A stretch of 37,400 bases of DNA from Holosporales bacterium (GCA_031255325.1 JAIRST010000027.1:1-37400); one strand, 5' to 3'. Positions 840 through 19,490 are shown, counted from the stretch's first letter. Translations and numbers: made by a program. Notes: generated by a model from the sequence alone, not told the origin.

Positions 840-2015
840 ATGGAGGAAAGACCGATTTATTTGGATTATCAAGCGACAACACCCTGTGACCCGTGTGTTG
901 TAGAAGCGATGCTGCCCTTTTTTACAGAACGATGCGGTAATCCTCATGCGCGCGCGCACGCTTATGGGTGGGAAGCTGAGGAAGCCATAGAAACGGCACG
1001 TTCGCGGATCGCCCAAGCAATTAATGCTGATCCTCGGGAGGTTATTTTTACTTCAGGAGCAACTGAAGCCAATAATTTGGCGCTCAAAGGTGTTGCTCAG
1101 TTTTACAAAGATCGTGGGCATAAAAAACACATTATAACAACTCAAATTGAGCATGATTGTGTTTTAGAATCGTGTCGTTCTTTGGAAAAACAAGGGTTTA
1201 TGGTCACTTACCTTCCTGTCCAAAAAGATGGACTCGTTGTTTTGGATGATTTGCGAAAGGCTATCACAGAAGAGACATTGCTTGTCTCTATCATGACGGC
1301 TAACAATGAAATTGGCGTCATTCAACCTATTGCCGAAATTGGCGCATTGTGTCGAGAAGCGGGTATTTTCTTTCATACCGATGCGGCTCAAGCGTTGGGA
1401 AAAATTGCGCTAGACGTTAATGCTCTTTCCGTCGATTTAATGAGTCTGTCTTCGCACAAAATTTATGGACCGAAAGGGGTGGGCGCTCTTTATTGCCGGT
1501 TAAAGCCTCGTGTTGGTCTTGCGCCTCTTTTAAGTGGTGGAGGGCAAGAACGTGGTTTACGGTCGGGTACCCTCCCTGTGCCGTTATGTGTTGGATTCGG
1601 AGCCGCGTGCCATTTAGCATGTACGTTAAAAGACAAAGAGAATGCGCGTTTATTAATATTGCGCAACCGTCTATACGAAAAGCTTTGTGCAGATCTGCCA
1701 AAAATTTATCTGAACGGGCACTTTGAGAAACGCTTGGCAGGCAATTTAAATATCAGTTTCGAAGGTATTGAAGGTGAAGGCCTTTTAATGGGGGTGAAAA
1801 ATTTAGCTCTTTCAACGGGATCAGCATGCAATTCAATGTCTTTGGAGCCTTCGCATGTTCTGCTAGCCCTTGGAATGGATCCAGGCTTGATACATGGTTC
1901 TGTCCGCATTAGCTTAGGGCGCTTTACTACGGAAGAAGAGATTGATTGTGCGGCAGAATCCTTGATTGCTGCAGTCAGAAAATTGCGAGCCATGAGTCCT
2001 CTCTGGGAAGAGTAG
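840..2015 (+). CDS. iscS: Cysteine desulfurase, IscS/NifS family (PLP-dependent)
   Basis: 391-aa ORF with N-terminal IYLDYQATTP, PLP-lysine motif SSHKIYGPKGVGALY and active-site Cys loop STGSACNS. AGGAAAG Shine-Dalgarno lies just upstream of the ATG. Confidence 0.9.
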   Translation: MEERPIYLDYQATTPCDPCVVEAMLPFFTERCGNPHARAHAYGWEAEEAIETARSRIAQAINADPREVIFTSGATEANNLALKGVAQFYKDRGHKKHIITTQIEHDCVLESCRSLEKQGFMVTYLPVQKDGLVVLDDLRKAITEETLLVSIMTANNEIGVIQPIAEIGALCREAGIFFHTDAAQALGKIALDVNALSVDLMSLSSHKIYGPKGVGALYCRLKPRVGLAPLLSGGGQERGLRSGTLPVPLCVGFGAACHLACTLKDKENARLLILRNRLYEKLCADLPKIYLNGHFEKRLAGNLNISFEGIEGEGLLMGVKNLALSTGSACNSMSLEPSHVLLALGMDPGLIHGSVRISLGRFTTEEEIDCAAESLIAAVRKLRAMSPLWEE

Positions 2016-2219
2016 AATAGCTATAATAGGAAATGCAGGTAACAGGTAAAATAAGACTCTAAGAAAGTTGGTCGCTTTATGAGATTGGGAGTAATCTAGG
2101 GGGGATACTCTACGCCGTTGGAAATGTGCCGCACAGATACCTGCTAGGGGATGAAGGTTTAGAGTTAGCACTATAAGGTTGAAGGACAGTCCTATTGTTA
2201 TTATTTTCTCCTTGAACAA

Positions 2220-3731
2220 TCAGGCGCATTCTTCTTTTAAACGGTGTTGCACACTCCATACGTAATCATCATAGGTTCCTGGATAGGGAAGCACCGTTTT
2301 GTTTTCCTCGATAGCGAGAATTTTTGTCCCGACATTGCGGACAAAAGAGCGGTCATGACTTACAAAAAGAAGTGTTCCTGTATAAGTACGTAAAGCCTGG
2401 GACAGCGCTTCAGTCGTCGAAAAATCTAAGTGGTTGGTCGGTTCATCAAGAGCTAAACAGCTGACTTTTTGAAGTAAAACACATCCTAAAGCTACCCGTG
2501 CTCGCTCACCCCCCGATAGCATGCGGATTGTTTTGTTTGTGTCGTCCTTCGTAAACAGTAAAGATCCTGCAAGGTCTCGTGCCTCCTGCTCGGTCACCGA
2601 CGGATCTTTAGCGTAATATAAAGCCTCTAATACGGTATGATTGGCGTTCAGACGTTCGGAAACATGTTGTGCAAAATAGGCAAACCGCACCTCATGCCCA
2701 AGCGTGCATGTTCCTTGCAACAAAGGGAGTTCTCCGACAAGCGTTTTTAAAAGAGTGGTTTTGCCGCGACCATTCGCACCCGTTATGGCAACACGGTCCC
2801 CACGTTCTATAGCGAAATTGATACGTCTCAAAATAAGCGCTTCGGGATCATATCCCACGGCTCCATTTTCAAGATGTAGTACAGTACGTCCACAGAGGGT
2901 GGGGGCGGGCACGCGAATACGTGCCGTTATTGAAAGAGGGGTAATACTGATGACTTCCATTTTGTTAAGCTCTTTCAGACGCGATTGCGCTTGTCGGGCT
3001 TTTGTTGCCTTTGCTCCAAAACGCGCGACGAATTGTAAAATTTGTTCTCGACGTTCTTTTAGATTTTTTGCACGCGCTGTTAATTGTTCTCGCAATAGCT
3101 CTTTTTGTTCGAAATAGTCGTCTAAGTTACCATTAAATTTTGTCGTTTCACCATTTTCTATTTCTAAAATATGGTCTGTTGTCCGACATAAAAATTCCCT
3201 GTCATGGGAAATCAGCAAAAATGCCCCTGAGAAATTTTGCAAAAAATTCTCTAAGAACAGAGTCGTATCAAGATCTAAATAGTTACTCGGTTCATCTAGC
3301 AATAAAAGAGAAGCTTTTTGCAAAGACATAGCTAAGAGCTTACAGCGCATCTGATATCCGCCACTTAAGGTCGTGATCGGCGCATAAAGATGCTGCTCAT
3401 AGCGCAAGCCAAACTTATGAGCCTGCGCATCCACTTCCCAAGGTTCAACATTTGCCGTTCGTGAAACGTATTCTTGTACAGTCTCGGTATCGGGGAAATC
3501 GTCATGCTGTGCTAGATAGGCGATATGAAGCGCACGCGATCGCGTTATTGTTCCGTCATCTTTCTCTTGACGCTCCATGATAATATCAAAAAGCGTCGTC
3601 TTCCCGACACCATTGTTGCCGATCACCCCAACATGCTCGCCTTCGTTGATTGTGAAATCTACTCCGGAAAAAAGAACACGCCCTCCGAAGCTCTTACGAA
3701 TATCTTTCAGTTGAAGAAGAGCAGCCGTCAC
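2220..3731 (-). CDS. ABC-F family ATPase (two fused ABC cassettes, no membrane domain)
   Basis: 503 aa. Walker A GNNGVGKT and GANGRGKT; signatures LSGGYQMR and LSGGERARV; Walker B LLLLDEPSNYLD and CLALDEPTNHLD; charged linker between the cassettes; GTG start. Confidence 0.88.
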   Translation of the reverse strand: MTAALLQLKDIRKSFGGRVLFSGVDFTINEGEHVGVIGNNGVGKTTLFDIIMERQEKDDGTITRSRALHIAYLAQHDDFPDTETVQEYVSRTANVEPWEVDAQAHKFGLRYEQHLYAPITTLSGGYQMRCKLLAMSLQKASLLLLDEPSNYLDLDTTLFLENFLQNFSGAFLLISHDREFLCRTTDHILEIENGETTKFNGNLDDYFEQKELLREQLTARAKNLKERREQILQFVARFGAKATKARQAQSRLKELNKMEVISITPLSITARIRVPAPTLCGRTVLHLENGAVGYDPEALILRRINFAIERGDRVAITGANGRGKTTLLKTLVGELPLLQGTCTLGHEVRFAYFAQHVSERLNANHTVLEALYYAKDPSVTEQEARDLAGSLLFTKDDTNKTIRMLSGGERARVALGCVLLQKVSCLALDEPTNHLDFSTTEALSQALRTYTGTLLFVSHDRSFVRNVGTKILAIEENKTVLPYPGTYDDYVWSVQHRLKEECA

Positions 3732-5287: not shown

Positions 5288-6586
5288 ATGTTCGTAACGC
5301 AATTTTTAAAAAAACGGCTACCGAAAACACTCTATGGGCGAACGCTTTTGATCATTGTGATGCCCATCGTCTTGATCCAGACGATTTCTGCTTATGTTTT
5401 TTTCAATCGTCACTTGGAATCGGTCATCTGGCAAACAAGTAATTTAAAAGCCAGAGAAATCAGCACTGTCGTAGCGCTGTTTCAGGATTTACAGCAGTCT
5501 ATAGCCGAAAGAGAGGCTGCTCGTTTTGAATTAAAGCTAGAGATCCTTCCGCCGCAAAAGGAAATGCCTTCTCACACTTCTGGCATCACCCGACAAATAT
5601 TTAATGTTGCTTTGAAAGGGCATTTAGAAGAAGCGTATTCCCTAACAAAAGCCGGCGAATATTTCGTCGTTCATGTTTTCATGAAGGACAATACGCTAAA
5701 ATTTTCTCTCCTTAAAAAGCGCTTTGCCAACCGTACGAGTGATGTATTTATTATGTGGTCATTGGGAACATCGATTTTATTCACGTTGATTGCGTGGGTT
5801 TTTATGCGCAATCAGATTCGTCCCATAAAACAGCTTGCAAAAGCGGCTGATCAATTCGGTAAAAACAACACGTTTGATCCTTTGAAACCCGGTGGCGCCT
5901 TGGAAGTGCGCAAGGCAGGAGAGGCTTTTAATAACATGCAGGAACGCATTAATCGCCATATCCAACAACGGACTGAAATGCTGACGGGAGTATCGCATGA
6001 TTTGCGTACCCCTTTAACACGCATGCGCTTGCACCTTGAGCTGATGCCAGGGGATACAAACATTTTGGCGCTAAAGCATGATTTATCTGAAATGGACATA
6101 ATGGTCACGCATTTCCTTGAGTATGTTCAGGGAGAACGTTTGGAAAAAGCTGAGCGCGTCGCTTTAGCCCCTGTTGTCCGTGAAGTTGCACGGCGCTATT
6201 TCATGCCGACGCTTCAATGCGATTTTCATCTGGATGATCGTATTGTGTATAGTTTACGGCCTCAGGCCTTTCGACGCCTTTTAGCAAATCTTCTCTCTAA
6301 TTGTCAAAGGTATGCGCACACTGTTCTTATACGCCTTATACAAAACCAAGAAGATATTGTTTTAACTTTCGAAGATGATGGTCCAGGCATTCCTGAAGAG
6401 CACAGAAAAGACGTGTTTAAGCCCTTTTTTCGACTTGATGCTTCACGAACCCCTGGAAAAGGCGGAAGCGGCTTAGGACTTCCGATCGTAAAAGACCTCG
6501 TCGCATCCATGGGAGGAACGATCACGCTGGCGTCTTCTTCCATTGGGGGATTAGGTGTCATTATTCGCCTTCCCAACAATTGTTAG
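5288..6586 (+). CDS. EnvZ-like sensor histidine kinase (no adjacent response regulator)
   Basis: 432 aa. Two hydrophobic segments (LLIIVMPIVLIQTISAYVFF and FIMWSLGTSILFTLIAWVF); a HAMP-like linker; H-box SHDLRTPLTRMRL; N-box LLSNCQRYA; G1 DDGPGIP; G2 GSGLGLPIV. Confidence 0.88.
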   Translation: MFVTQFLKKRLPKTLYGRTLLIIVMPIVLIQTISAYVFFNRHLESVIWQTSNLKAREISTVVALFQDLQQSIAEREAARFELKLEILPPQKEMPSHTSGITRQIFNVALKGHLEEAYSLTKAGEYFVVHVFMKDNTLKFSLLKKRFANRTSDVFIMWSLGTSILFTLIAWVFMRNQIRPIKQLAKAADQFGKNNTFDPLKPGGALEVRKAGEAFNNMQERINRHIQQRTEMLTGVSHDLRTPLTRMRLHLELMPGDTNILALKHDLSEMDIMVTHFLEYVQGERLEKAERVALAPVVREVARRYFMPTLQCDFHLDDRIVYSLRPQAFRRLLANLLSNCQRYAHTVLIRLIQNQEDIVLTFEDDGPGIPEEHRKDVFKPFFRLDASRTPGKGGSGLGLPIVKDLVASMGGTITLASSSIGGLGVIIRLPNNC

Positions 6587-7611
6587 CAAACAGTAAGGCG
6601 CACAGGATCCAAAGGAATAGATGAATGATGAAAAGACGTAAGCCAAGAAGTATGCCCCAAAAGATTTTTGCCGTTCAGGTAGGTACCAGAAGTGTGCATG
6701 GGAGGATGTAAAAACATAGTACAGCTATGCTCTGCCCCCAAAAAAGAGCGCATATATTGAGCAAGAGCCGACCAACGGGAAGCTTTAGGCAGGAAGGCGC
6801 AGAAGTCCTCAAATGTCTCAGGAAAGCACATAAGGATTAGGCCGTGTGCTTGATCCCAGATACGCTTACCAAGGAGAGTACTTACGCCCAGCAGATGTGC
6901 AGAGCATCCAAGAATTGTATGATCAATGGCATCAATAGGACGCCACCCCCCTAAAAAATTACAGGCTTTTGTGCGTGTGTTAAAAAAATTTTGCAACTGC
7001 CTTTCAAGTTTAGAAAGACTCCTTGGATATTCCCATAAATGTCCAGAAAATCCGATCTGTTCTGAGAAAACCGATCTTCCAGGAAGAATGCCAGTAAAAG
7101 TCCTATGGAGCGTTCCTAAAAGGGATGCCTGAAAAGGTGCTCCTTGGAGTGCTGGAAAACGCTTTAGGGAAATCCTATGGGAAATTTCTAGAATTCGATG
7201 ATTAAACACATTTAAGAAAGCTTCTAAGGCTAAATGTTTCTGACGTTTTTCCGATACAAGAAGTTCACGATACGCAACAGGAAGGGGACTTTGAACGCCC
7301 AAAAGGTTCATGCGATTAGTGGTAATCGTCATAGAAGGACGTTTCTGAAAAGACGTGTGTTGATCAGGCTTTAGGAATTGGACATCAACGACTTCATACG
7401 CTTGTAAGTCAAAATGAAGTTTTCCACATAGTCTGATCTCTTTCAAAGAATCCTGGTGGTTATATTGAGCTTTTTCTTGAATGTTTTTAGCGTTAAAAGA
7501 AGAGATATACCTTTTACAGATATACAGGGCTTGATCAAGTGAAAACCTATAGGGTTCTTCTTGCAATCGCTCAATTAAAGATCTTTTTGCTGTCCGAACT
7601 GTATAGGCCAC
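6583..7611 (-). CDS. tssG: Type VI secretion baseplate protein TssG
   Basis: 342 aa. N-terminal EEPYRFSLDQALYI matches the conserved TssG N-terminus. It sits immediately after tssF. GTG start is preceded by AAGGAA and overlaps the tssF end by 37 nt. Confidence 0.8.
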   Translation of the reverse strand: MAYTVRTAKRSLIERLQEEPYRFSLDQALYICKRYISSFNAKNIQEKAQYNHQDSLKEIRLCGKLHFDLQAYEVVDVQFLKPDQHTSFQKRPSMTITTNRMNLLGVQSPLPVAYRELLVSEKRQKHLALEAFLNVFNHRILEISHRISLKRFPALQGAPFQASLLGTLHRTFTGILPGRSVFSEQIGFSGHLWEYPRSLSKLERQLQNFFNTRTKACNFLGGWRPIDAIDHTILGCSAHLLGVSTLLGKRIWDQAHGLILMCFPETFEDFCAFLPKASRWSALAQYMRSFLGAEHSCTMFLHPPMHTSGTYLNGKNLLGHTSWLTSFHHSSIPLDPVRLTVC

Positions 7612-9368
7612 GTTTTCAACATTCCTTCTTTATGTGGATCTTTTACAGAAATTTCGACGAAGCTGTTATAAGAGGTATAAGAGCGAAAAAATTCAGCCAA
7701 AACACCGCTAAATAAAATAGTATTCACCGAACTATTTTCTGCGTCATCGATTTCCAATGTGATTTTTTGCCCGGGGACAAAACCTCGCCATCCATCACGT
7801 CCTAATCGCCGTGTAGAGGGTGTATAGGTGATAGAGGAAAGAGCATGAATCTCTTGTTGATAAGGAGAAATCCGCTCGGAAAGGACGTATAACAACTCTT
7901 TCAGTCGCTGAAGGGTGTTGTCCTTTTTTGAAGAGATAAGAGATAAAGATTCTAAGGAAAGCATCGTTATCAGGCGCCAAAGTGTTTCTCCTTGTATAGG
8001 AGGAGATTTGACTGTTGTTGGCCTTTCCATACAGAAAATTTTTTTAATGGGTAAAGATTGTTCAATTTGAAAAATACCACCAGCAGGAATCTCTTGAGCA
8101 AGTTCACGATTTGTGCACAAGGTATGCGCATAGATAACGAAATGTTCTGAGTGCTCTGGATGTAGAGCGAGATTCACAAAGGAAAGGAACACATCTGTTC
8201 CTGTAACGTCCATACGTTCTGAAGGCATTCTTCGTGCTGTCCAGAAAAGGATAGGTGCTTGCTGCTGTATCCGATACGTTAAAGCATGATAAGGAGGAAT
8301 TTCTATTTCTTGAGTACTTTCCGTATCTAAAGAGACAACGCGAGAAATGCTGTAAACTTCTTGGGTAAGATAACGGCGTTGGTCAGGAATGATCATCGTT
8401 TCTGTTCGTGTATAATCAAGCATTATCGGCTCGCTGATACTTTCGAAAAGGTTGATTCCTGGCACACAGTTAAACTCCAATGAACGTGGATTTACCTCAA
8501 GATGCTTTCCAGAAATTTCACTCATAGGAAGGTAAAATGAAAGAGTCTCATGCCAATTATCGAGAGGAATGGAATGTATCTCTGCGCCTAAGAACTTTTG
8601 TGGAAATGCAAAATATTCTTCCAGAAAGCGAAACCCTCGGTGCTCCTCGTGCGTAATAGGCAATAGATTCTCTGAATCCTGGAACCCAATAGCTTGCAAG
8701 GAAGGTATTTTTTGCAGAATATTGTCTTCTGAAATTTTTATAAAAATGGGTAAATCGTGCGTGAAAAGAGCCTTATAAAGAGTGTTTTTAAAGGTATCTT
8801 CCCCTAGCAAATAGAATCGCAAACGCTCTGGTCCTTGCCCTAAAGGACCATGCCAGCGTACACGCAGGTGTAAGTATGCGGGGGCTTCCATTAAGGGCTC
8901 TTCTGGAAGAACAATCTGGCTGTGGAGAATCTCAACAGGCCATAAATTAAGGTCATGTGTCGTCCTAAAAAAACATACGCTACCATCGCTTCCGTTCGTA
9001 AAAAGTTGGCTGTCTTTTTTTACGTATATCCCCGGCGTTTGGCCGCTTTTATCGAAATCTAAATCAAAACAAAAAAGCGCCATAGATGGAATTGGACGCG
9101 TAAAAGAAGGATATAAAGTTTGCAAAAGAGCAGAAGCGATCTCTGGCGTAAGATCATCGATTTGTTTTTGTAAACGTCCTGTTAGCAGGGCAAAAGACTC
9201 TAACAAACGCTCTACATGCGGATCTGTAGAGGGCGTTTTTCCGAAATCAAGATGCTGGGCGATGTCAGGGAAATGTGCGGAAAATTCCTGGCCTAAAGTC
9301 CTTAAAAAGGAAAGTTCTTTTTGATAATAAGAAACAAGAATTTCACGGGATTTTTCCATTGTTTCCAT
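7575..9368 (-). CDS. tssF: Type VI secretion baseplate protein TssF
   Basis: 597 aa. N-terminal YYQKELSFLRTLGQEFSAHFPDIAQHL is the characteristic TssF opening. Size and position between tssE and tssG are canonical. Confidence 0.88.
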   Translation of the reverse strand: METMEKSREILVSYYQKELSFLRTLGQEFSAHFPDIAQHLDFGKTPSTDPHVERLLESFALLTGRLQKQIDDLTPEIASALLQTLYPSFTRPIPSMALFCFDLDFDKSGQTPGIYVKKDSQLFTNGSDGSVCFFRTTHDLNLWPVEILHSQIVLPEEPLMEAPAYLHLRVRWHGPLGQGPERLRFYLLGEDTFKNTLYKALFTHDLPIFIKISEDNILQKIPSLQAIGFQDSENLLPITHEEHRGFRFLEEYFAFPQKFLGAEIHSIPLDNWHETLSFYLPMSEISGKHLEVNPRSLEFNCVPGINLFESISEPIMLDYTRTETMIIPDQRRYLTQEVYSISRVVSLDTESTQEIEIPPYHALTYRIQQQAPILFWTARRMPSERMDVTGTDVFLSFVNLALHPEHSEHFVIYAHTLCTNRELAQEIPAGGIFQIEQSLPIKKIFCMERPTTVKSPPIQGETLWRLITMLSLESLSLISSKKDNTLQRLKELLYVLSERISPYQQEIHALSSITYTPSTRRLGRDGWRGFVPGQKITLEIDDAENSSVNTILFSGVLAEFFRSYTSYNSFVEISVKDPHKEGMLKTWPIQFGQQKDL

Positions 9369-9369
9369 C

Positions 9370-9813
9370 TTACATATTAATTGTTACCGGAAAAGAAACA
9401 GGGTAATAGGTTTTATTTAGAGATAGACCCCCTGTGACATGCGCTATTAAGCACCTGTTTAAGAAAGGCGTATCATCAACCTGTACCTGAACATTGCACA
9501 AGCGTGGTTCATAATGTGCAATAAGGTTTTGCAAATAATTTGCATAGGTTTCTTGGAAAAAATCCGTACCCTGTGGGCGTGAAAAAACAATGTCACGCAT
9601 ACCATAGGCATAAGGTGTAATGAAAGTATCTTTTCCTTGCCAATAAGGGCTTGTATGCTCGTTAAGAAGATGCTCTATCTCGTGCAAAACAGATTGTTTT
9701 AATGTCTCGACCGTATGATACGCAGAAAAGGTTAAAGGCGTATTTCCACCTGTTGCGAACCTTTCAAAAAGGGGGCGTTTTTCGTAAAAATGCGTACGTT
9801 CTATTGGTGTCAT
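9370..9813 (-). CDS. tssE: Type VI secretion baseplate protein TssE (gp25-like)
   Basis: 147 aa. Contains LKQSVLHEIEHLLNEHT, AYGMRD and IAHYEPRL, typical of the GPW/gp25 family. One nucleotide separates its stop from the tssF ATG. Confidence 0.85.
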   Translation of the reverse strand: MTPIERTHFYEKRPLFERFATGGNTPLTFSAYHTVETLKQSVLHEIEHLLNEHTSPYWQGKDTFITPYAYGMRDIVFSRPQGTDFFQETYANYLQNLIAHYEPRLCNVQVQVDDTPFLNRCLIAHVTGGLSLNKTYYPVSFPVTINM

Positions 9814-10349
9814 TTCTGATCTTTCGTTAGATCAGAGGTAAATACAGCGTTTCCCGTAGGACGCCCTGTTTGCGGATCGAGGACGATGATTTTGTCCGAA
9901 ATTTTGCTGAAATAAAAAGAATAGTATTCTTCTCGTCCTATGTAGCGAATTTCACGCAAAAAGCAGTCAGAAAACTTTGTGCATCGTATCACAGTACTTT
10001 TCTTTTTCCCGGGCTCCAGTCCGTAAAATGTCAATTCAGGAAGAGGAAATTTCTGATGAAATTTCTCTTGTAGGCTCGCAGAGTGAGCCCCAAAAACTAT
10101 ACCAAATTCTACAGGATCAGAATAAATAACCCCCAATCTTTTGAACGTTTTTAGAAAAGAATCTTGGACTGTATGCCGCGCTGCATAGCTCCACCCTGTA
10201 CACGGTGCAGCGTTTTTATATCCTTGGACAACAGAAGAAAAAACATCCTTTGCAGAGATAAGCCAGTAAGGCTCTTTTGCAGAAGCACATGATGTGAGAG
10301 GAACGCTTGGGCTTCTTATTTCATAAGAACTCATGGTAGAAGTTTCCAC
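9810..10349 (-). CDS. Hypothetical protein in the T6SS operon (possible very divergent Hcp-like paralogue)
   Basis: 179 aa, with no signal peptide, no TM segment and no motif I recognise. GAGGAG lies 7 nt before the GTG start, and an alternative ATG lies 5 codons in. Its TGA overlaps the tssE ATG (ATGA). The C-terminal ~50 residues align by eye at roughly 20 percent identity with the adjacent Hcp C-terminus. Confidence 0.6.
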   Translation of the reverse strand: METSTMSSYEIRSPSVPLTSCASAKEPYWLISAKDVFSSVVQGYKNAAPCTGWSYAARHTVQDSFLKTFKRLGVIYSDPVEFGIVFGAHSASLQEKFHQKFPLPELTFYGLEPGKKKSTVIRCTKFSDCFLREIRYIGREEYYSFYFSKISDKIIVLDPQTGRPTGNAVFTSDLTKDQK

Positions 10350-10399
10350 CTTCTAACTCCTCTACGAGATTGTCGGTTGTCCAGCTTAATCTCAAACGA

Positions 10400-10975
10400 T
10401 TATTCGCCCGCTGCAGACCACGTGCTATAGTTAAATCCGGCCGCAACGTTTCCGGAATCCGTTCCTGTTCTGTCGCGATGCGTATAGCTGAAATCAATCT
10501 GGTCGTAATAGATTGTGATGATAGCTAAATCGCCATCAGAAAATATTCCTTTTATTTGGCAATTAGTTAAAGTCAAGCCGCGTTTCGTTTGCACTCCTGA
10601 TTTCAAATTGATCATCGTGTTAATGGTGATGGTATCAATTACGTCGGCAGAGGTATGCTTTTCGAACAAAAGAGCAATATGTTTATCATCTTCAATAACG
10701 ATATCAACGGTGTGTGCTTGCAACTGTCCATAGTCTGTAACACGTGATGTTGCTTCTCCTCGCATCAGCCGATCGAATTCCAAAACACATCCATAACAAG
10801 AGAGGTATGTTTCCATGCCGCTTGTTGTGCCTTCTGTGATATCCGGAACCTCAATTAAAAACGGAGGCGTGCGAGATTGAGCCCGTCCATCTTTTGACAT
10901 GTACTTTTCGCGCACATGGTCTAATAACCGCAGTTTTGCATTACGTTCTGCGTAGAGAGAGAGCGTATCACTCAT
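10400..10975 (-). CDS. hcp: Type VI secretion tube protein Hcp (TssD), divergent, with N-terminal extension
   Basis: 191 aa. It occupies the canonical position after tssC. From residue ~37 (PPFLIEVPDITEGTT...) to the C-terminal IITIYYDQIDFSYTH...GNVAAGFNYS the pattern matches Hcp-family beta-barrel proteins. A strong AAGGAG Shine-Dalgarno lies 7 nt before ATG 10975. Confidence 0.65.
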   Translation of the reverse strand: MSDTLSLYAERNAKLRLLDHVREKYMSKDGRAQSRTPPFLIEVPDITEGTTSGMETYLSCYGCVLEFDRLMRGEATSRVTDYGQLQAHTVDIVIEDDKHIALLFEKHTSADVIDTITINTMINLKSGVQTKRGLTLTNCQIKGIFSDGDLAIITIYYDQIDFSYTHRDRTGTDSGNVAAGFNYSTWSAAGE

Positions 10976-11011: not shown

Positions 11012-12469
11012 TTATTTCGCGGGAGGAGGTAAAGTTGCTACCAACCGAATGGAAGCCGTCAATTCCTCAAGTTGGAAATGAGGGCGTAGGAAAATTGTTG
11101 CCTTATACGACCCTGGTTTTCCCGGAACATCGAAAACATCGACACGCGCTTCACGTAAGGGATAGCGCGCTTTCAATGCTTGCGAGGCGTTGTCATTTAA
11201 GATGACGTAATTTGCAATCCAGGTGTTCAGGTAGTGCTCGACCTCATCCTTTGTCGCAAATGACCCAATTTTATCGCGCATAATAGCTTTAATGTAATGC
11301 GCAAAGCGTGACGCCGCTAAAATATAGGGCAAACGCCCACTCAAGGAAGCGTTTGCGTTAGCATCATCTGTATTATAGACCTTTGGTTTTTGCGTTGTTT
11401 GCCCACCGAAAAAGGCAGCATAATCAGTTCCTTTACTGTGACAGAGTGCCAGAAATCCCAGATCGCCTAATTCTTTTTCGCGCCGATCTGTAATAGCAAT
11501 TTCTGTTGGACATTTTAGGGCGATATCTCCATCCGTTGTTTTAAACGTATAAGCGGGAAGATCTGTGACGAGTCCTCCGCCTTCAACACCGCGAATTGCT
11601 GCTGGCCATCCATAATGAGCAACGGCATCTGTAACGCGTTGTGCAAGAACAAAAGCTGGATTCCCCCAACAGAATTTGGCGTTGTCTGTGCCGTATAAAT
11701 CTTCTTTAAAAGCGAGTCCATCAACAGGCTGCGTATCTGGTCCATAAGGCAATCGGGCGAGAACATGCGGCAATGTCAAGGCGACATAACGTGCATCTTC
11801 GCTATCTCGGAACGAGCGCCATTTAATCATCTCAGTACTTTCGAATATTTTTGAAAGATCCCGTGGTTCCGATAAATGCGTATAGGCATCCATATCAAAA
11901 AGGATAGAGCTTGCCATTGTAATAAAGGGGGCATGCGCTGCTGCGGCAACATTTGAAATTTTCGACAAAAGCTCCATATCCTGGGGAGAACGCGTGAATT
12001 CATACCCTCCAACAAGGCAAGAGTAAGGATTCCCTCCGAAAGTGCCGTACTCTTCTTCATAAACTTTTTTGAAAAGAGCGCTTTGATCAAATTCAACAGC
12101 TTTTTCTAAATCATCAAGAAGCTCTGCCTTTGTGACATTTGCAAGACGCAATTTTAGATGGGTTCCGGTTTCCGAGTTCATCACCAGATAGCGCAAGCTG
12201 CGCCATGTTCCTTCTAATTCTAGGAAATCTGGATGATGCAAGACTTCGTTCAATTGTGCGTTGATAGCATCATCAACACGTTGCACTTCACGTGTAACAA
12301 AAGCGAATGTGTTGGAGAGTAAAGGTTCTTGTGCCGCATCGATGCGATCTAAGAATTCCACCAGCATCTTTGACGCATAGTCTTCAAGATTAGGCGTGCG
12401 TGCGAGCTTTCCTTCTTTAAAAAGGCGCTCTAAAAGGGTTTCTGGATCAAGGGGTGTTGCCTGGGCCAT
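11012..12469 (-). CDS. tssC: Type VI secretion contractile sheath large subunit TssC (VipB)
   Basis: Contains HHPDFLELEGTWRSLRYLV and other TssC-typical blocks; about 485 aa. I place the start at ATG 12469 (MAQATPL...), preceded by GGAG. The ORF track extends it to TTG 12481. Confidence 0.93.
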   Translation of the reverse strand: MAQATPLDPETLLERLFKEGKLARTPNLEDYASKMLVEFLDRIDAAQEPLLSNTFAFVTREVQRVDDAINAQLNEVLHHPDFLELEGTWRSLRYLVMNSETGTHLKLRLANVTKAELLDDLEKAVEFDQSALFKKVYEEEYGTFGGNPYSCLVGGYEFTRSPQDMELLSKISNVAAAAHAPFITMASSILFDMDAYTHLSEPRDLSKIFESTEMIKWRSFRDSEDARYVALTLPHVLARLPYGPDTQPVDGLAFKEDLYGTDNAKFCWGNPAFVLAQRVTDAVAHYGWPAAIRGVEGGGLVTDLPAYTFKTTDGDIALKCPTEIAITDRREKELGDLGFLALCHSKGTDYAAFFGGQTTQKPKVYNTDDANANASLSGRLPYILAASRFAHYIKAIMRDKIGSFATKDEVEHYLNTWIANYVILNDNASQALKARYPLREARVDVFDVPGKPGSYKATIFLRPHFQLEELTASIRLVATLPPPAK

Positions 12470-12483
12470 GATTTTCTCCAAAC

Positions 12484-13062
12484 TTATTGCTTTTTGCTCG
12501 TGTCGGGGGAAGTATTTTCCACTTGAGACTTTTTATTTCCTCCTGGCAAAGAAGATGCTGGTTTTGCTCGCGCAGCAATCTGTTGGCGTACCGCATCTCG
12601 TAGATCTTTATTGGTAAGCAAAGCATCTAATAGAGCAAATAAAGGGTCGTTCCCTTCCATTTTGGCCTGAATATCACGCAACACAACGCGTGATTCATAA
12701 AGAGTATTTAAAGCCGGAACGCTTTTCACAACCGCTAAAGGACCGAAGTCTTCCATCGATGAGAAAAAAAGTTCTACCCCCGTTTGTGGTTTGTCCGTTG
12801 TTAATTTGTTGGCTACTTCAAACGCAAGCCGTGGCTTTATGGAAGCAAGAATTTCATCGAAGTTGTCTCTGTCGATTTCTACAAATTTACGGTCTTTAAA
12901 GCGTGGAAGAGGTGTTTCAGGTTTTCCTGAAAGATCTGCGAGAATGCCGACAAGAAAGGGAAGTTCCTTCATCTGGATCGCATCCCCGATTTCAACATCA
13001 TAAGTGATTTGGACGCGTGGTGGACGGACACGGTCAAGAATATGTTGCGTACTTTCAGCCAT
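12484..13062 (-). CDS. tssB: Type VI secretion contractile sheath small subunit TssB (VipA)
   Basis: 192 aa. RVQITYDVEIGDAIQMKELPFLVGILADLSG is the hallmark TssB N-terminal block. It is followed directly by tssC. Confidence 0.92.
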   Translation of the reverse strand: MAESTQHILDRVRPPRVQITYDVEIGDAIQMKELPFLVGILADLSGKPETPLPRFKDRKFVEIDRDNFDEILASIKPRLAFEVANKLTTDKPQTGVELFFSSMEDFGPLAVVKSVPALNTLYESRVVLRDIQAKMEGNDPLFALLDALLTNKDLRDAVRQQIAARAKPASSLPGGNKKSQVENTSPDTSKKQ

Positions 13063-13480: not shown

Positions 13481-14017
13481 TTAAACGCGTTTGTATGTCA
13501 CCGTACGTGGCGTTGGCAGAGGAGCCTGTACCCCTTGCTTCGCTTCAGATGTATCGCGAATAACACGAGAACGTCCTGCTTGACCAACAATCACAATGAC
13601 GGCACTGCCCTTAGGAAGCAGATCCTCAAGACCTTGCACAACTGTCATCACTTGACCATTTGTTAATTTGATAGTGTACTCCACAGCCTCTTGTTCTCTA
13701 AGGGCCTGTTGCGCCATTGCTCCACCAATAGCCCCCCCTATCGCACCTATCGCTGTCATCGCTGTTTTCCCATCGCCTTTACCAAATGCAGACCCCAGAA
13801 GGCCTCCACCAACAGCGCCAAGAGCGCCACCCTCTACGTTTTCTTGCAGCTGTTCGCTCCCTACGCGCACTTTTCTAACATTCAAAATCGTCCCTTGATA
13901 GGAAAAAGACGCTTCGCCTACATGATTTTCACTATAAACATTCGAGTCAATGCGACGTGTACATCCTGCAAGGAGCAGGGCAGCAATGCATACCGAACAC
14001 CCTAGATATTTATTCAT
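13481..14017 (-). CDS. Glycine-zipper outer-membrane lipoprotein (17-kDa surface antigen / SlyB-like)
   Basis: The start is trimmed to MNKYLGCSVCIAALLLAGC (lipobox LLAGC). Glycine-zipper run: GGALGAVGGGLLGSAFGKGDG...AIGAIGGAIGGAMA. Confidence 0.75.
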   Translation of the reverse strand: MNKYLGCSVCIAALLLAGCTRRIDSNVYSENHVGEASFSYQGTILNVRKVRVGSEQLQENVEGGALGAVGGGLLGSAFGKGDGKTAMTAIGAIGGAIGGAMAQQALREQEAVEYTIKLTNGQVMTVVQGLEDLLPKGSAVIVIVGQAGRSRVIRDTSEAKQGVQAPLPTPRTVTYKRV

Positions 14018-14172
14018 ACTTTTCTTTCTTTTGTTAAGCAGATAGAACTTTAACATAGGATTATTTAAAAGGTAAGATACGGTATGAGGATCAATCCTCT
14101 TTCTCGTAAATGAAGAGAGTAGAATTTAATCAGCTCCTTTTATAAAGTTTTTCTTCCTCGTATGCTGCTTTC

Positions 14173-15408: not shown

Positions 15409-16188
15409 GGGGTACGATGGAAATGCGTGGAAGCGTCTCTATTGGAAATATCATGATTGAGGCAAGGATATACACGACTAAAAGACATTATGCGTTCGTG
15501 CTGTGTGAGAAGAAACTCCTGGCTTATAAGATTAAAGAAGTAAGAAACAAGTACGATTCTGAAAATACCTGTATAGGATGAGCTTTATTCTTTTATTTAA
15601 AGAAGAAAACTATGTTTGAGGGAGAACAGCTGTTGACGGGAATAGTGTTGCGTTTAGCAGCAGCCATGGAAAAGCTAGTTCTTTAAATCTTTAAAATCCA
15701 TGCAAAACAAAATGACACGTCATTAAAAAATACTGTATACATAAATGCAAATTTATGCATACAAAAAAATGATTTCCAATACGATAGAGTTTACTATCAA
15801 TTAATCGAAACTGGGAGTAATACTCGATAGGAGTTTGATGTCAGGAATGGGGAATTTTTAAAATCACACAACACTTATTATTGGACTATAATGAAATTAT
15901 GTAGTCAACTCATAGGGAATAGATGACGTATCTGCGCGAAAAATTTATATTAATGTCAATTTCTAGAATCTGTTTAGGAGAATCGTATTATTTTATGTGG
16001 CTCTATTACTGCGCCAGATGACGCCCACTAATCAAGTGTTCCTCAAAATCCAATTGTATGCTGAAATTATTGTCACCTTTATTGATTAACAAAAACGTCC
16101 TCTATCCTATTCCTTAACCAATTATGCCGATGATGTGTTAATTCCTGGAAATTATGCAACCTCTGCAAAATTCTCTACAATTCTTTCC

Positions 16189-18672
16189 ATGCGTTATACT
16201 TCGTTTGCATTTTTATTTATTTTTATAGGGCTTAAAACTGCCTTTGCAGATCCTGTGGTCGTCAGCTCCAATGATCACAATGTTTTGGAAAATGAAGAAG
16301 AATTGCTTGCAAAAGTATTTGGATCGAAGCGAGAGAAAAAAGATGTTTTAATGGAATTTAATTTATTGCTCGATGGGGAAAAAGTTGGGGAAATTATGGT
16401 TATGATTGGAGGAACGAATAAAGTTCTTGCCAAATCCATAAAAGAAGCACTGGTCGACTATTTAGCTGAGGAGGAAATAAAGAAGATAGATGCGGCAAAA
16501 GACGAGAATGGATTCATCTCATTTGAAACTTTGGATCTTTTAAAACTAGATACGAAATTTGATGCGACCAAACTTCAGGTGGAAATCAACGTTCCAGTGA
16601 ACCTAAAAAAGACTAGAGGTATAGAAATAGGTTCAAAAGGCCGTAAAGAAAAGCCTAATGTTACGCCCGCGACTTTCAGTGGATTCACTAATGCACATTT
16701 TTCCAATACCTCACATAGTGGAATGTATAAATCAAACAGCAGAACATTGATTCTGACTCCAGTCATTAATCTTTTGGGAATAACGCTTGAAGGAGAGTGT
16801 TCTTATGAGCAAGATTCAACTTCTAGTAAAAGACGATTTAAAAAGGACTATACAGCACTTGTTTATGATTGGCCAGAAGAAGCTTTGTTATTCCAGATAG
16901 GGGATATATTCAGTCATTCTGTGGATTATCATAGCGTGCCAAAAGTTTTTGGTTTTAGTTTCTATAGAAATTCCCTTTTAAAAAGTGGAGATGACCTTAC
17001 TAATGATATTCCTGTAACTTTGCTAAGACAAAGTACAATTGAAGTATACGTAAATGACGCATTAGTTAAGACTAAGACTAATGTAGCGCCCGGAACATAT
17101 ATCTTAAATAGTATTCCATGTACTTATGGCTTTAACAACGTAAAGATAAAAATCATTGACGACGCGGGAAGAGAGCAATTTCTTAATGCTAACGTATTTC
17201 TTGATAGTTCTTTCGTTAGAAAAGGAGAAAGCTCTTACGGGCTGACTATTGGATATCCAGAAGCAAGCAATAATAAAAAAAACTTTGTTACCTCCGCGTT
17301 TATCAAATATGGATTAATGGCGGCGATAGAGTGTCAGTTGGGAATTCTACTCAACAGAATTGGAAAAACTGTTTCCGCAGGAATAAAAAATAAAAATATA
17401 CTTGGATTCCTAGAAGGAAAGTACGCTCAAAGTAAATACAAAGAAGGGAATATTCAGCCAGAGGGAAAAATTTTTAGCCTTTCCTACATATCGCCATCTT
17501 GGAAAGTTATATTCCCTATTAATCTTGGAATTTCTGTAGAAAAATCTGATCAGTTTTTTTATCCTTATCTTAACACTCTAAAAGATACTAAAGAAGATTC
17601 TGGTAGCTTTTTAAGTCAACAAAAGAACAGAAACGGAGGACATAGTGCTATGCGATGCTCTTTATTTATCAGCGATTTTTTGGGTCTAAACCTTGGCTTT
17701 AACTATGGTGTAGAAAAAAGCTCGGATAACACTCAAAACAGATTTTCTGTTAATGCAACGAAATACATTGCATTTAATAACGAGATCTTTAGCAGCATTC
17801 AACTGCATTGCTCTTTCGAACAAGTCCTTACGCGTGACAAAAAAGCAGATAGAATATTTAGCTTTACTGGCTCTGTTCCCCTAAAGGGCGGTACGACATT
17901 ATCGACGAGAGGCAATAACAAAAGCAGCTATGATTCTTCCATTTCTTATCAACCTCATGATAATGGTTTTGGGTATAATGCGTCTTTTAATAAAAACAAA
18001 GAGTCCAAATCATATATTGCTAATACGAGTTATCGTCATTCACGGTTTAGAGCCAATTTGAATTACAATAGAACAAGCAACTCTTCTCATACAACTCAGG
18101 TTGGATTGGGAACAGGTTTGTTTTTCGTTGATGGGGTGGTTGCTGTAGCGGGAAATGACACAAGTGATGGGGGGTTTGTTATCGTAAGGCCGAAAGGGGC
18201 ATTAGCAAATGAGAATCTTAAGTTCCTCAATAGTTCTGCTGAATCGGGCATTTTAGGAGGAGCTGTTTTATCAGCAGGTAAGAATATAAATTCTTTTCGT
18301 TTGGATTTAAATGAGCTGCTAGACAAAGAGGTGGATCAGGATACGATTGTCGTTCACGGATATTATAAACGAGGTGCTTTAGCAGAAATTTCTGCTGAAG
18401 GAAGTTACATCGCAAAAGGTAAATTACAGGATGCACAGGGAGCAGCAATCACTCTTGCAAGTGGATTTGCTATCTCAAAAACAAATACAGAAGCAGCTCC
18501 TGTTCAATTTTTTACAAATGATGAAGGTATTTTCGCTATAACTAATCTTAATCCCGGGAAGTACAAAGTTACCGTAAATGTGGAGGGGTATGAGGATTTT
18601 GAGATCGAAATACCAGAGTCTGCAGAACAGTTTATTGATTTAGGAACGATCACATGCAAGGATTCTCAATAA
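16189..18672 (+). CDS. Fimbrial usher-like outer-membrane protein (divergent), with C-terminal carboxypeptidase-regulatory-like beta-sandwich
   Basis: The start is trimmed to MRYTSFAFLFIFIGLKTAFA (signal peptide); the ORF track starts at GTG 16135. An N-terminal usher-like block ends in KFDATKLQVEINVP. A plug-like motif TIEVYVNDALVKTKTNVAPGTYILNSIPCTYGFNNVKIKIIDDAGREQ is present. The long middle region is Ser/Asn/Tyr/Gly-rich and barrel-like. C-terminal GIFAITNLNPGKYKVTVNVEGYEDFEIEI. Confidence 0.55.
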   Translation: MRYTSFAFLFIFIGLKTAFADPVVVSSNDHNVLENEEELLAKVFGSKREKKDVLMEFNLLLDGEKVGEIMVMIGGTNKVLAKSIKEALVDYLAEEEIKKIDAAKDENGFISFETLDLLKLDTKFDATKLQVEINVPVNLKKTRGIEIGSKGRKEKPNVTPATFSGFTNAHFSNTSHSGMYKSNSRTLILTPVINLLGITLEGECSYEQDSTSSKRRFKKDYTALVYDWPEEALLFQIGDIFSHSVDYHSVPKVFGFSFYRNSLLKSGDDLTNDIPVTLLRQSTIEVYVNDALVKTKTNVAPGTYILNSIPCTYGFNNVKIKIIDDAGREQFLNANVFLDSSFVRKGESSYGLTIGYPEASNNKKNFVTSAFIKYGLMAAIECQLGILLNRIGKTVSAGIKNKNILGFLEGKYAQSKYKEGNIQPEGKIFSLSYISPSWKVIFPINLGISVEKSDQFFYPYLNTLKDTKEDSGSFLSQQKNRNGGHSAMRCSLFISDFLGLNLGFNYGVEKSSDNTQNRFSVNATKYIAFNNEIFSSIQLHCSFEQVLTRDKKADRIFSFTGSVPLKGGTTLSTRGNNKSSYDSSISYQPHDNGFGYNASFNKNKESKSYIANTSYRHSRFRANLNYNRTSNSSHTTQVGLGTGLFFVDGVVAVAGNDTSDGGFVIVRPKGALANENLKFLNSSAESGILGGAVLSAGKNINSFRLDLNELLDKEVDQDTIVVHGYYKRGALAEISAEGSYIAKGKLQDAQGAAITLASGFAISKTNTEAAPVQFFTNDEGIFAITNLNPGKYKVTVNVEGYEDFEIEIPESAEQFIDLGTITCKDSQ

Positions 18673-18674
18673 GC

Positions 18675-19490
18675 ATGATCAGAAAATCTATAGCGCTTAT
18701 ATTTTTTTTGTTCTTCAATGATAGCCACGCAACGGAGGTGGCGCATGCCCATTTAGATAAATACGATGGTATATTTGAAATCAGGTCTCAAGGACATGTC
18801 GTTGGAAACTTTAAGGTAAGTATTAAAAATGATGGGAAAGTCGCTAAAGAAGGTGAAGAATCCATAGCCTTTACCATACAATTAGAAGATATAAGATTAA
18901 GCACAGATATAACTGGCGTTAACAAATTAAAATGTTCCCATGAAGGCGGCGCTGATCAAGAAATAAATTTACTATCGAAAGATGGAAAATATAGGACGGA
19001 GGATATTCATATTCCTTTAGCTAAATCTTTTTATTCTCAAAAAAGGAATGGTGAATTTAGCGTTACATTGACTTTTCAATTAAGAGGGGTTCCTATTGTA
19101 TTTGATAAAGTTGATATAATAATTGTCCCAGAAATAAATATTGCAGCTGACCGTGATACAGTCGATTTTGGAACATTGTTTTACGATAACAACAGAGTCT
19201 ACGGACCCAATAGAGAAGTTATCCTCTATTACAAAATACTCAATAATGGAAAATGTTTCATTTCTAGCAGGAATGGTTTTTGTTTAAAGCATCCTAATGG
19301 AGATTTGATCGAGTATGCGATCGGAAAAGGCGAATTAGCATTCATTAACCAAAACATAACAATGTTAACGTTGGACGCTCACGGGACAACGTATCGTTTG
19401 GAACTTAATGTCGATAGTTACTCCAGAGATATCCCCTCTTCTGGCAATTACCAAGATTCTCTTACTATATCTTTCTTACCAAATGAATAA
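18675..19490 (+). CDS. Secreted two-domain pilin-like protein (putative tip adhesin, SCPU/Csu-like C-terminal domain)
   Basis: The start is trimmed to MIRKSIALIFFLFFNDSHA (signal peptide), 3 nt after the usher stop. The second half contains VDFGTL and ends in SGNYQDSLTISF. The first half ends in the similar NGEFSVTLTFQL. Both endings resemble the terminal strand of chaperone-usher subunits. Confidence 0.45.
   Translation: MIRKSIALIFFLFFNDSHATEVAHAHLDKYDGIFEIRSQGHVVGNFKVSIKNDGKVAKEGEESIAFTIQLEDIRLSTDITGVNKLKCSHEGGADQEINLLSKDGKYRTEDIHIPLAKSFYSQKRNGEFSVTLTFQLRGVPIVFDKVDIIIVPEINIAADRDTVDFGTLFYDNNRVYGPNREVILYYKILNNGKCFISSRNGFCLKHPNGDLIEYAIGKGELAFINQNITMLTLDAHGTTYRLELNVDSYSRDIPSSGNYQDSLTISFLPNE

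Follow-up and report, generated by a model that had tools for sequence, protein, structure and literature searches.

We analysed a window of 37.4 kb from a Holosporales bacterium, the window being the whole stretch of DNA (37,400 nucleotides) and not the feature under study. It carries one tight operon on the minus strand with the gene order tssB-tssC-H-X-tssE-tssF-tssG, and within the window no T6SS gene lies outside this operon. The gene of the sheath small subunit, tssB (12484..13062; PF05591, TIGR03358), is followed by that of the sheath large subunit, tssC (11012..12481; PF05943, PF18945, and TIGR03355 at 1e-197). Directly after tssC lies H (10400..10975), which encodes a 191-aa acidic paralogue of the Hcp family, identified by ortholog and profile matches. 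X, a second Hcp-family, TssD-like gene, occupies 9810..10349 and leads into tssE, the gene of the gp25-like baseplate wedge (9370..9813; PF04965 at 2.4e-6, TIGR03357 at 1.5e-13), then tssF (7575..9368; PF05947 at 3.8e-146) and tssG (6583..7611; PF06996 at 3e-44), all on the minus strand. Genes for a histidine kinase and a lipoprotein border the operon, the genes around it in the window are of housekeeping, regulatory and envelope types, and no effector, cargo or immunity gene adjoins X. The source organism of X is represented by metagenome assemblies only.

The original prediction had described an unassigned ORF of 179 aa between hcp and tssE, and the ORF is real, at 9810-10349 on the minus strand with a GTG start at 10349. 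Direct reading of the sequence also confirmed the signals that had been reported around it. A Shine-Dalgarno-like GAGGAG is located at 10357..10362 on the minus strand, with a 7-nt spacer to the GTG codon (10349-10347), and the TGA stop of X overlaps the ATG start of tssE as ATGA at 9810..9813. An alternative, in-frame ATG start at 10334, with an AGGTGG motif about 10 nt on its 5' side, would give a protein of 174 aa (MSSYEIRS...). Considering that the public gene call P0001 uses this ATG and that the X orthologs, at 173 aa, fit it, the start of X is ambiguous, and we regard the two codons as equally plausible. The five extra residues from the GTG start belong to the N-terminus, where the model described below has low confidence. 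In the orthologous loci, GGAGG-type motifs precede the X starts by 3-5 nt, and the ATGA overlap recurs in two of these loci (L001 and L003); such a stop/start overlap implies translational coupling of X and tssE. H has a stronger classical Shine-Dalgarno arrangement (AAGGAG, 8 nt, ATG), and no convincing terminator was found between H and X. As had been stated, X has no signal peptide or transmembrane segment; the maximal Kyte-Doolittle hydropathy over 19 residues reaches 0.89, with a hydrophilic N-terminus.

Position alone had given H the name hcp in the original prediction, since H has no Pfam match of its own. The Hcp identity of H was upheld through its orthologs and profiles, whereas a direct family match was not obtained. 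PF05638 is matched by two of six H orthologs (best E 2.4e-6), the profile of H and its post-tssC relatives finds Hcp in the PDB at 1.4e-8, and hhalign relates H to the other post-tssC groups with a probability of 97-98%. The canonical order in which hcp leads directly to tssE is true of a related locus, L046, which has one Hcp-like gene in an otherwise canonical operon, tssB-tssC-one Hcp-like gene-tssE-tssF-tssG.

X matched no family of Pfam or NCBIfam at E <= 0.1, in agreement with the earlier statement that it carries none of the known T6SS accessory motifs, and neither PF05638 nor the NCBIfam Hcp models were matched directly. A match to a curated model is a criterion of detection and not a structural definition of Hcp. 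Accordingly, the link between X and Hcp is transitive and structural. When the ortholog profile of X (A1) was used in an exhaustive HMM search of 1.84 billion representatives, 24 matches at E <= 1e-3 were obtained, and the relatives found in this way have 155-212 aa and align over most of their length with E values of 1e-7 to 1e-3. Two matches were set apart, one being a close X ortholog and the other a 426-aa protein (P0024) that aligned in short repeated stretches only, and the remaining 22 relatives were combined with three X orthologs into an alignment of 25 sequences (A3). Nine of these 25 sequences match PF05638 (best E 1.7e-5), and UniRef gives the name Hcp to a family member from Ca. 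Finniella inopinata (WP_130154628.1). Against Hcp chains of the PDB, the joint A3 profile matched 7fcf at 7.6e-8 and 3v4h at 1.3e-6, followed by 9qpe, 5xeu and 5mxn. A profile limited to X and the pre-tssE relatives still matched 7fcf at 1.3e-3, and PDB sequence searches with the ortholog profiles of X only or H only found no Hcp. In hhalign comparisons, X was related to the groups of the family with a probability of 97-99%. The profile searches that had been proposed for X thus revealed profile-level homology to characterised Hcp, by way of its relatives and the match of the joint profile to 7fcf. Between the two neighbours, hhalign aligned 145 colinear columns of the X and H profiles (E 3.5e-5, probability 72%), local HMM searches gave reciprocal weak matches, and the identity in local alignments is about 20-25%. 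This hhalign comparison of the ortholog profiles recovered, in an identical register, the alignment of FSDCFLREIRY... with LTNCQIKGIFS... that had been drawn by eye.

We then consider the predicted structure of X. AlphaFold2 with only six close orthologs gave a pLDDT of 38.5, and with the 25-sequence alignment it gave a usable model with a pLDDT of 86.3 and a pTM of 0.80. The model shows strands at residues 24-27, 42-56, 68-80 and 98-168, with a helix at 83-93, an arrangement that qualifies as the Hcp fold, a beta-barrel of two sheets with a single helix. This fold spans residues 23-168 of 174, and about 20 N-terminal residues are of low confidence. When the model was compared with the PDB by Foldseek, as had been suggested, the best 50 matches were all Hcp chains, with a best E of 4e-10, a probability of 1.00 and TM scores of 0.7-0.86; they include A. 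baumannii 4w64, 8yun, Burkholderia 4tv4, P. aeruginosa 1y12 and EvpC 3eaa. This count includes 4ksr (rank 13), which is deposited as a GspE chain and in which the aligned region is presumably a fused Hcp. Phage tube, gp3, gp19 and baseplate-tube proteins of BFVD matched the model with E values of 6e-6 to 1e-3 and TM scores of 0.35-0.52. X is therefore closer in structure to Hcp than to proteins of the phage tube initiator or terminator type, although a functional analogy to the latter is possible. Neither an unrelated fold nor a clear match to another family, the two outcomes that had been named as contrary to the idea of a tube paralogue, was found. Because the Hcp fold takes up the whole protein, X has no added toxin domain, and the suggestion that it might be a novel effector was not borne out.

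Among 5.8 billion proteins, X has, in addition to its own entry, only five close homologues, with 68-73% identity; those with a named organism, three in all, come from Holosporales metagenome-assembled genomes (MAGs), and none is functionally annotated. As only about 6-8 distinct X sequences occur in these 5.8 billion proteins, X is a feature of a narrow clade. H likewise has, besides the window's own protein, five orthologs with 45-81% identity, one of them with a precomputed PF05638 match. When the alignments of H and X were used to scan metagenomes, no matches were obtained. A search for X orthologues beside related T6SS genes had also been proposed, and the order tssC-H-X-tssE was found in five lineages, namely the window, L001/L002, L003/L004, L040 and L041, so that X is encoded alongside T6SS core genes in the window and in four other lineages. 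The full loci with this order differ in their flanking genes.

Between the window and L001, the identities are 79% for TssB, 81% for TssC, 56% for H, 63% for X, 51% for TssE, 59% for TssF and 49% for TssG, and between the window and L041 they are 74% for X and 54% for H. Over the lineages compared, X shows 63-74% identity, TssE 48-51%, TssF 59-60%, TssG 49% and H 54-79%. X thus evolves more slowly than TssE, TssF and TssG, and more slowly than H in two of three comparisons. Its synonymous sites (dS) are saturated at a dN of 0.19-0.25, indicating strong purifying selection on X. No fewer than six lineages have an intact ORF of X, and X and H are kept together in every lineage where either of them turned up. 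Of the 32 positions that the other family members conserve, X keeps 20 and H keeps 16. The two proteins are distinct in charge: every one of the six X orthologs is basic (pI 8.7-9.4, net charge +3 to +9), and the six H orthologs are acidic without exception (pI 4.7-5.3, net charge -4 to -8).

X and H belong to a wider family of Holosporales proteins with the family-specific motifs WLISA..(I/V)FSS and F..C, the latter with a nearly invariant Cys. P. aeruginosa Hcp1 has Val at this position. Scanning of one genome per species with the best-populated subgroup gave 31 loci, all in MAGs of Holosporaceae or alphaproteobacteria whose isolate names indicate ruminant samples or are termite-style codes. 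In all 31 loci, ORF and HMM annotation placed the Hcp-like gene directly upstream of tssE, followed in most by tssF-tssG, and neither tssB nor tssC nor another family member was found within up to 10 kb. In such related clusters, where the only nearby Hcp-like gene is the one before tssE, it shows the same tight coupling with tssE. The family member follows tssC directly in L044, L045 and L047, with nothing related to T6SS downstream (tssB and tssC are fused in L044), and in L008, where it is at the contig end. In L042 it precedes a solitary tssE (P0013-tssE-nusB). All loci that we examined outside the window clade have one family member per locus. These positions, after tssC or before tssE, match the split organisation [tssB-tssC-hcp] / [tssG-tssF] that was described for Holosporales (PMC8163844). 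A 2025 review, in the text of which the two descriptions are swapped, reports the Holosporineae T6SS as apparently without TssD (Hcp) and TssJ (PMC11909080). The divergent family is probably this 'missing' Hcp of the Holosporales T6SS. We assigned CPBP_00987 of Ca. Bodocaedibacter vickermanii, annotated as 'Hcp1-like', to the family by annotation and position only. In Ca. Bodocaedibacter, a solitary tssE is adjoined by CPBP_00257, a hypothetical protein of 245 aa.

The original prediction had seen a hint of an ancient tandem hcp duplication. The profiles and the model uphold X as an Hcp paralogue, but the word ancient is not supported by the tree. In a neighbour-joining tree with 100 bootstraps, each group has 78-100% support, and the backbone is a star with deep support below 40. 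In hhalign scores, X and H (A1-A2) form the weakest pair at 36.9, with X scoring 70-106 and H scoring 52-83 to the other groups; H leans to the post-tssC groups, and X is without preference. An HMM class test of pre-tssE against post-tssC proteins did not pass its leave-one-group-out control. On the one hand, the tssC of L045 is about 85% identical to that of the window, as close as the tssC of L001; on the other hand, the post-tssC protein of L045 reaches no more than about 30% identity with X or with H. This discrepancy suggests that both copies diverged rapidly after a duplication limited to the window clade. In the simplest reading, the ancestor would have had one Holosporales Hcp gene, placed between tssC and tssE, that would have travelled with either neighbour when the operon was split, and a tandem duplication with strong divergence would then have occurred in the window clade. 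An alternative is an old system of two paralogues that reside at separate loci in many genomes.

Based on the chain of profiles, the predicted structure and the profile-profile match with H, X is a very divergent second Hcp and a paralogue of H, in accordance with the leading idea of the original prediction, a second divergent tube-like protein. The recurrence of the gene order, the conservation of X and the opposite charges of basic X and acidic H indicate that X is a retained paralogue, and we infer that it is not redundant. We consider it somewhat better than an even chance that X is a functional second Hcp (TssD) of the same T6SS and serves as a subfunctionalised tube protein. Judging from its modelled fold, X would form hexameric rings, enter the inner tube and be expelled on sheath contraction, and X and H would have divided the ancestral job between them. 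Their opposite charges would fit rings that stack or co-assemble, or rings that each take a different class of cargo, although the variant of specific cargo is weakened because no effector or cargo gene stands next to X. Since X is the more conservative copy, it may be the bulk subunit of the tube.

X might instead form a single-layer initiator or adaptor ring on the VgrG/baseplate hub, in baseplate stoichiometry, with H as the bulk tube. TssE is present in few copies per T6SS machine, and coupling to tssE could mean a low stoichiometry of X, which would favour an adaptor ring. The ATGA overlap of X and tssE is conserved in three lineages, H comes directly after the sheath genes with the stronger ribosome-binding signal, and in relatives the Hcp-like gene stays by tssE even where tssF and tssG (L042) or tssB and tssC (the 31 loci) lie elsewhere. 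A ring-on-ring interface would be well served by the opposite charges of X and H, and canonical Hcp is closer to the post-tssC profile (1.4e-8) than to the pre-tssE profile (1.3e-3). However, relatives with a single copy are coupled to tssE likewise, and in L046 the single gene between tssC and tssE must be the tube, so that a position before tssE alone does not make an adaptor. The star-like tree does not separate pre-tssE from post-tssC proteins as two clades, the class test failed its own control, and the nearest structures to the model of X are true Hcps, the initiators and terminators of phage being more distant (TM 0.35-0.5). In the T6SS, the gp27-like domains of VgrG do the job of seating the tube, and we know of no described T6SS that uses a baseplate-proximal ring of a tube paralogue. 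Considering the tssE coupling of single-copy relatives, the resemblance to bulk Hcp and the lack of a two-class phylogeny, we regard this initiator role as rather unlikely. Somewhat less likely still would be two Hcps with fixed roles, in which a basic X ring, produced in baseplate stoichiometry along with TssE, would sit on the VgrG/baseplate hub and nucleate the polymerisation of the acidic bulk H, or in which X and H would make up an obligate heteropolymer tube.

X could also use its Hcp fold outside the tube, either as a cytoplasmic chaperone or receptor of one given effector or by being itself secreted as an effector, and to this role we assign a small probability, below that of the tube assemblies just described. 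Hcp rings bind and stabilise effectors, and X is basic, unlike H. Predictors of the Bastion6 type flag Hcp-like neighbours as secreted (PMC8163844 supplement), a predicted secretion that would agree with a role off the tube. This role is opposed by the absence of an extension domain in X, whose fold already accounts for residues 23-168, by the lack of an effector or immunity gene nearby, the operon being bordered by the histidine kinase and lipoprotein genes, and by the location of X inside a structural operon, where it is more conserved than the baseplate proteins. It is very improbable that X is a duplicate that is redundant or in decay, or an accessory protein other than Hcp, such as an Eag/DUF1795 adaptor, a PAAR protein or a TssK substitute, some of which the original prediction had listed. 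The lack of a direct database family match would allow this, but the ORF has remained intact in at least six lineages, with 63-74% identity and synonymous sites at saturation, X is always kept with H, and the fold is confidently modelled as Hcp, while the DUF1795, PAAR and TssK models of Pfam and NCBIfam were unmatched. Thus the adaptor, PAAR and TssK suggestions did not stand, and X as a second, subfunctionalised Hcp of the same T6SS is the reading that we carry forward.

In terms of annotation, a fold and a family are now assigned to X, which is blank in standard annotation, and likewise to H, which is equally invisible to Pfam. The divergent family adjoins tssE or tssC in dozens of MAGs of Holosporaceae and alphaproteobacteria, and if it is the missing Hcp, the T6SSs of these endosymbionts would be structurally more complete than thought. 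X and H, deeply diverged, oppositely charged and retained together, provide a test case for the division of labour among Hcps, be it a mixed tube, an initiator or different cargo. The main practical value would accordingly lie in the annotation of a hidden Hcp family of the Holosporales T6SS and in a natural case of putative Hcp subfunctionalisation.

Compared with known systems, X shares the fold and a similar size with Hcp/TssD (PF05638), as represented by P. aeruginosa Hcp1 (1y12), A. baumannii Hcp1 (4w64) and the Burkholderia protein (4tv4), lies likewise in a tssBC...tssEFG operon, and has profile homology to Hcp via the Holosporales family. It differs from the solved Hcps in having only about 10-15% identity to them and no direct PF05638 match, and from canonical Hcp in having about 20 extra N-terminal residues of low confidence, the family motifs and a basic pI. 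Within the divergent Holosporales family, of which X and H are both members (hhalign 94-99%), length, motifs and operon positions are the same; elsewhere this family has one member per locus, whereas the window clade has two in tandem, each of which is as distant from its neighbour as from any of the other groups. Hcp paralogues are often specialised for different effectors, and they are usually encoded in different clusters or in hcp-vgrG-effector islands and are often much more alike. The solved structures of P. aeruginosa Hcp1/Hcp3 and S. Typhimurium Hcp1/Hcp2 are among the Foldseek matches of X, and in these organisms, as here, a T6SS can draw on two or more proteins with the Hcp fold. Unlike such paralogues, X and H are adjacent in a core operon without cargo genes, share about 20-25% identity and have opposite charges. 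Tandem Hcp paralogues are uncommon but have precedents in kind in several bacteria with more than one Hcp, and the X/H pair, kept adjacent in a small group of protist-associated Holosporales, is unusual and not unprecedented.

The extracellular contractile injection systems (eCIS) and phage T4 offer a further comparison. Afp5/Pvc5 is a second tube paralogue of eCIS, and gp48/gp54 and gp3 are the tube initiators and terminators of T4. In these systems, a gene for a tube-fold paralogue separates the sheath/tube genes from the gp25-like baseplate gene, as X does, and this may be an analogy for a ring close to the baseplate. On the other hand, the phage tube, gp3 and gp19 proteins resemble X more weakly (TM 0.35-0.5) than Hcp does, and X has no LysM or other domain. 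If the tube of this T6SS does have two roles divided between X and H, it would be the first dedicated tube initiator or heteromeric tube described for a T6SS, and it would stand in parallel to Afp5/Pvc5 of eCIS and gp48/gp54 of phage T4.

The 191-aa Hcp-family paralogue H (10400-10975, minus strand), labelled hcp in the original prediction, gave no match when its own protein was scanned against Pfam and NCBIfam. We assign H to Hcp because some of its orthologs match PF05638 and because of profile links. The first Hcp strand of H is preceded by approximately 38 residues. H is the more derived copy of the pair that it forms with X, the Hcp-family gene between H and tssE, and it keeps 16 of the 32 family-conserved positions. 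In alignments A6 and A8, the Holosporales Hcp family, which comprises divergent Hcp-like proteins including X and H, showed a near-invariant cysteine in the motif F/L-x-x-C-x-I. This cysteine corresponds to C124 in X (174-aa numbering) and C139 in H, and it is present in 97% of the other family members. At this position, Hcp1 of P. aeruginosa has a valine.

In related genomes, an unannotated Hcp-like gene lies directly 5' of tssE at loci L009-L039 (31 loci) and L005-L007, whose hosts are Holosporaceae and alphaproteobacterial MAGs. In most of these loci tssE is followed by tssF-tssG, and neither tssB nor tssC was found within 10 kb of the Hcp-like-tssE pairs. Hcp has been described as apparently absent from the T6SS of Holosporineae (PMC11909080), and we consider that the gene preceding tssE is probably this Hcp. 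The pair of Hcp-like gene and tssE outlasts operon fragmentation, since locus L042 keeps the Hcp-like gene P0013 and tssE (8001-8924), while tssF and tssG are not present at the locus. The tssE of L042 is short (108 aa) and is directly followed by nusB and an RNase T gene. Additionally, in one Holosporaceae MAG tssF is divided into two ORFs of 281 and 303 aa (L023, 10964-12735), which may reflect a frameshifted gene or pseudogene, or else a fault in the assembly.

Other loci carry an isolated tssC-hcp arrangement. In L044, from the Alphaproteobacteria MAG GCA_051657245.1, a single 645-aa ORF (1307-3244) matches both TssB (VipA) and TssC (VipB), as if the two sheath proteins were fused. The isolated Hcp-like gene P0025 follows this ORF. 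3' of isolated tssC-hcp, we found a serine-recombinase-like ORF in L045 (1440-1697) and a prepilin-like ORF in L047 (1157-1387), both called by eye from the translated sequence. The ORF in L045 could point to disruption of that operon by a mobile element.

In the window, a glycine-zipper lipoprotein-like gene (13481-14056, minus strand) is located just 5' of tssB on the same strand, and its product matched TagQ (NF041250, E 1.3e-7), a lipoprotein associated with T6SS, only weakly and below threshold. Considering that TssJ is reported missing in the T6SS of Holosporineae (PMC11909080), this product might be an outer-membrane accessory of the T6SS. No obvious counterpart 5' of tssB appeared in the gene table of L001, which carries the tssC-H-X-tssE order. 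Within 16135-19490 on the plus strand, a gene for an 845-aa usher-like outer-membrane protein (PF00577 together with a CarboxypepD_reg domain) overlaps the next ORF, which encodes 278 aa and matched no family. The GC content here is 0.35-0.38, and both ORFs lie inside a lower-GC stretch at 16-22 kb; they could form a fimbrial or usher island.

The T6SS genes of the 37-kb window comprise only tssB, tssC, tssE, tssF, tssG and the two Hcp genes, with no tssA, tssK, tssL, tssM, vgrG or clpV. This partial set is consistent with the multi-locus organisation described for the Holosporales T6SS (PMC8163844).
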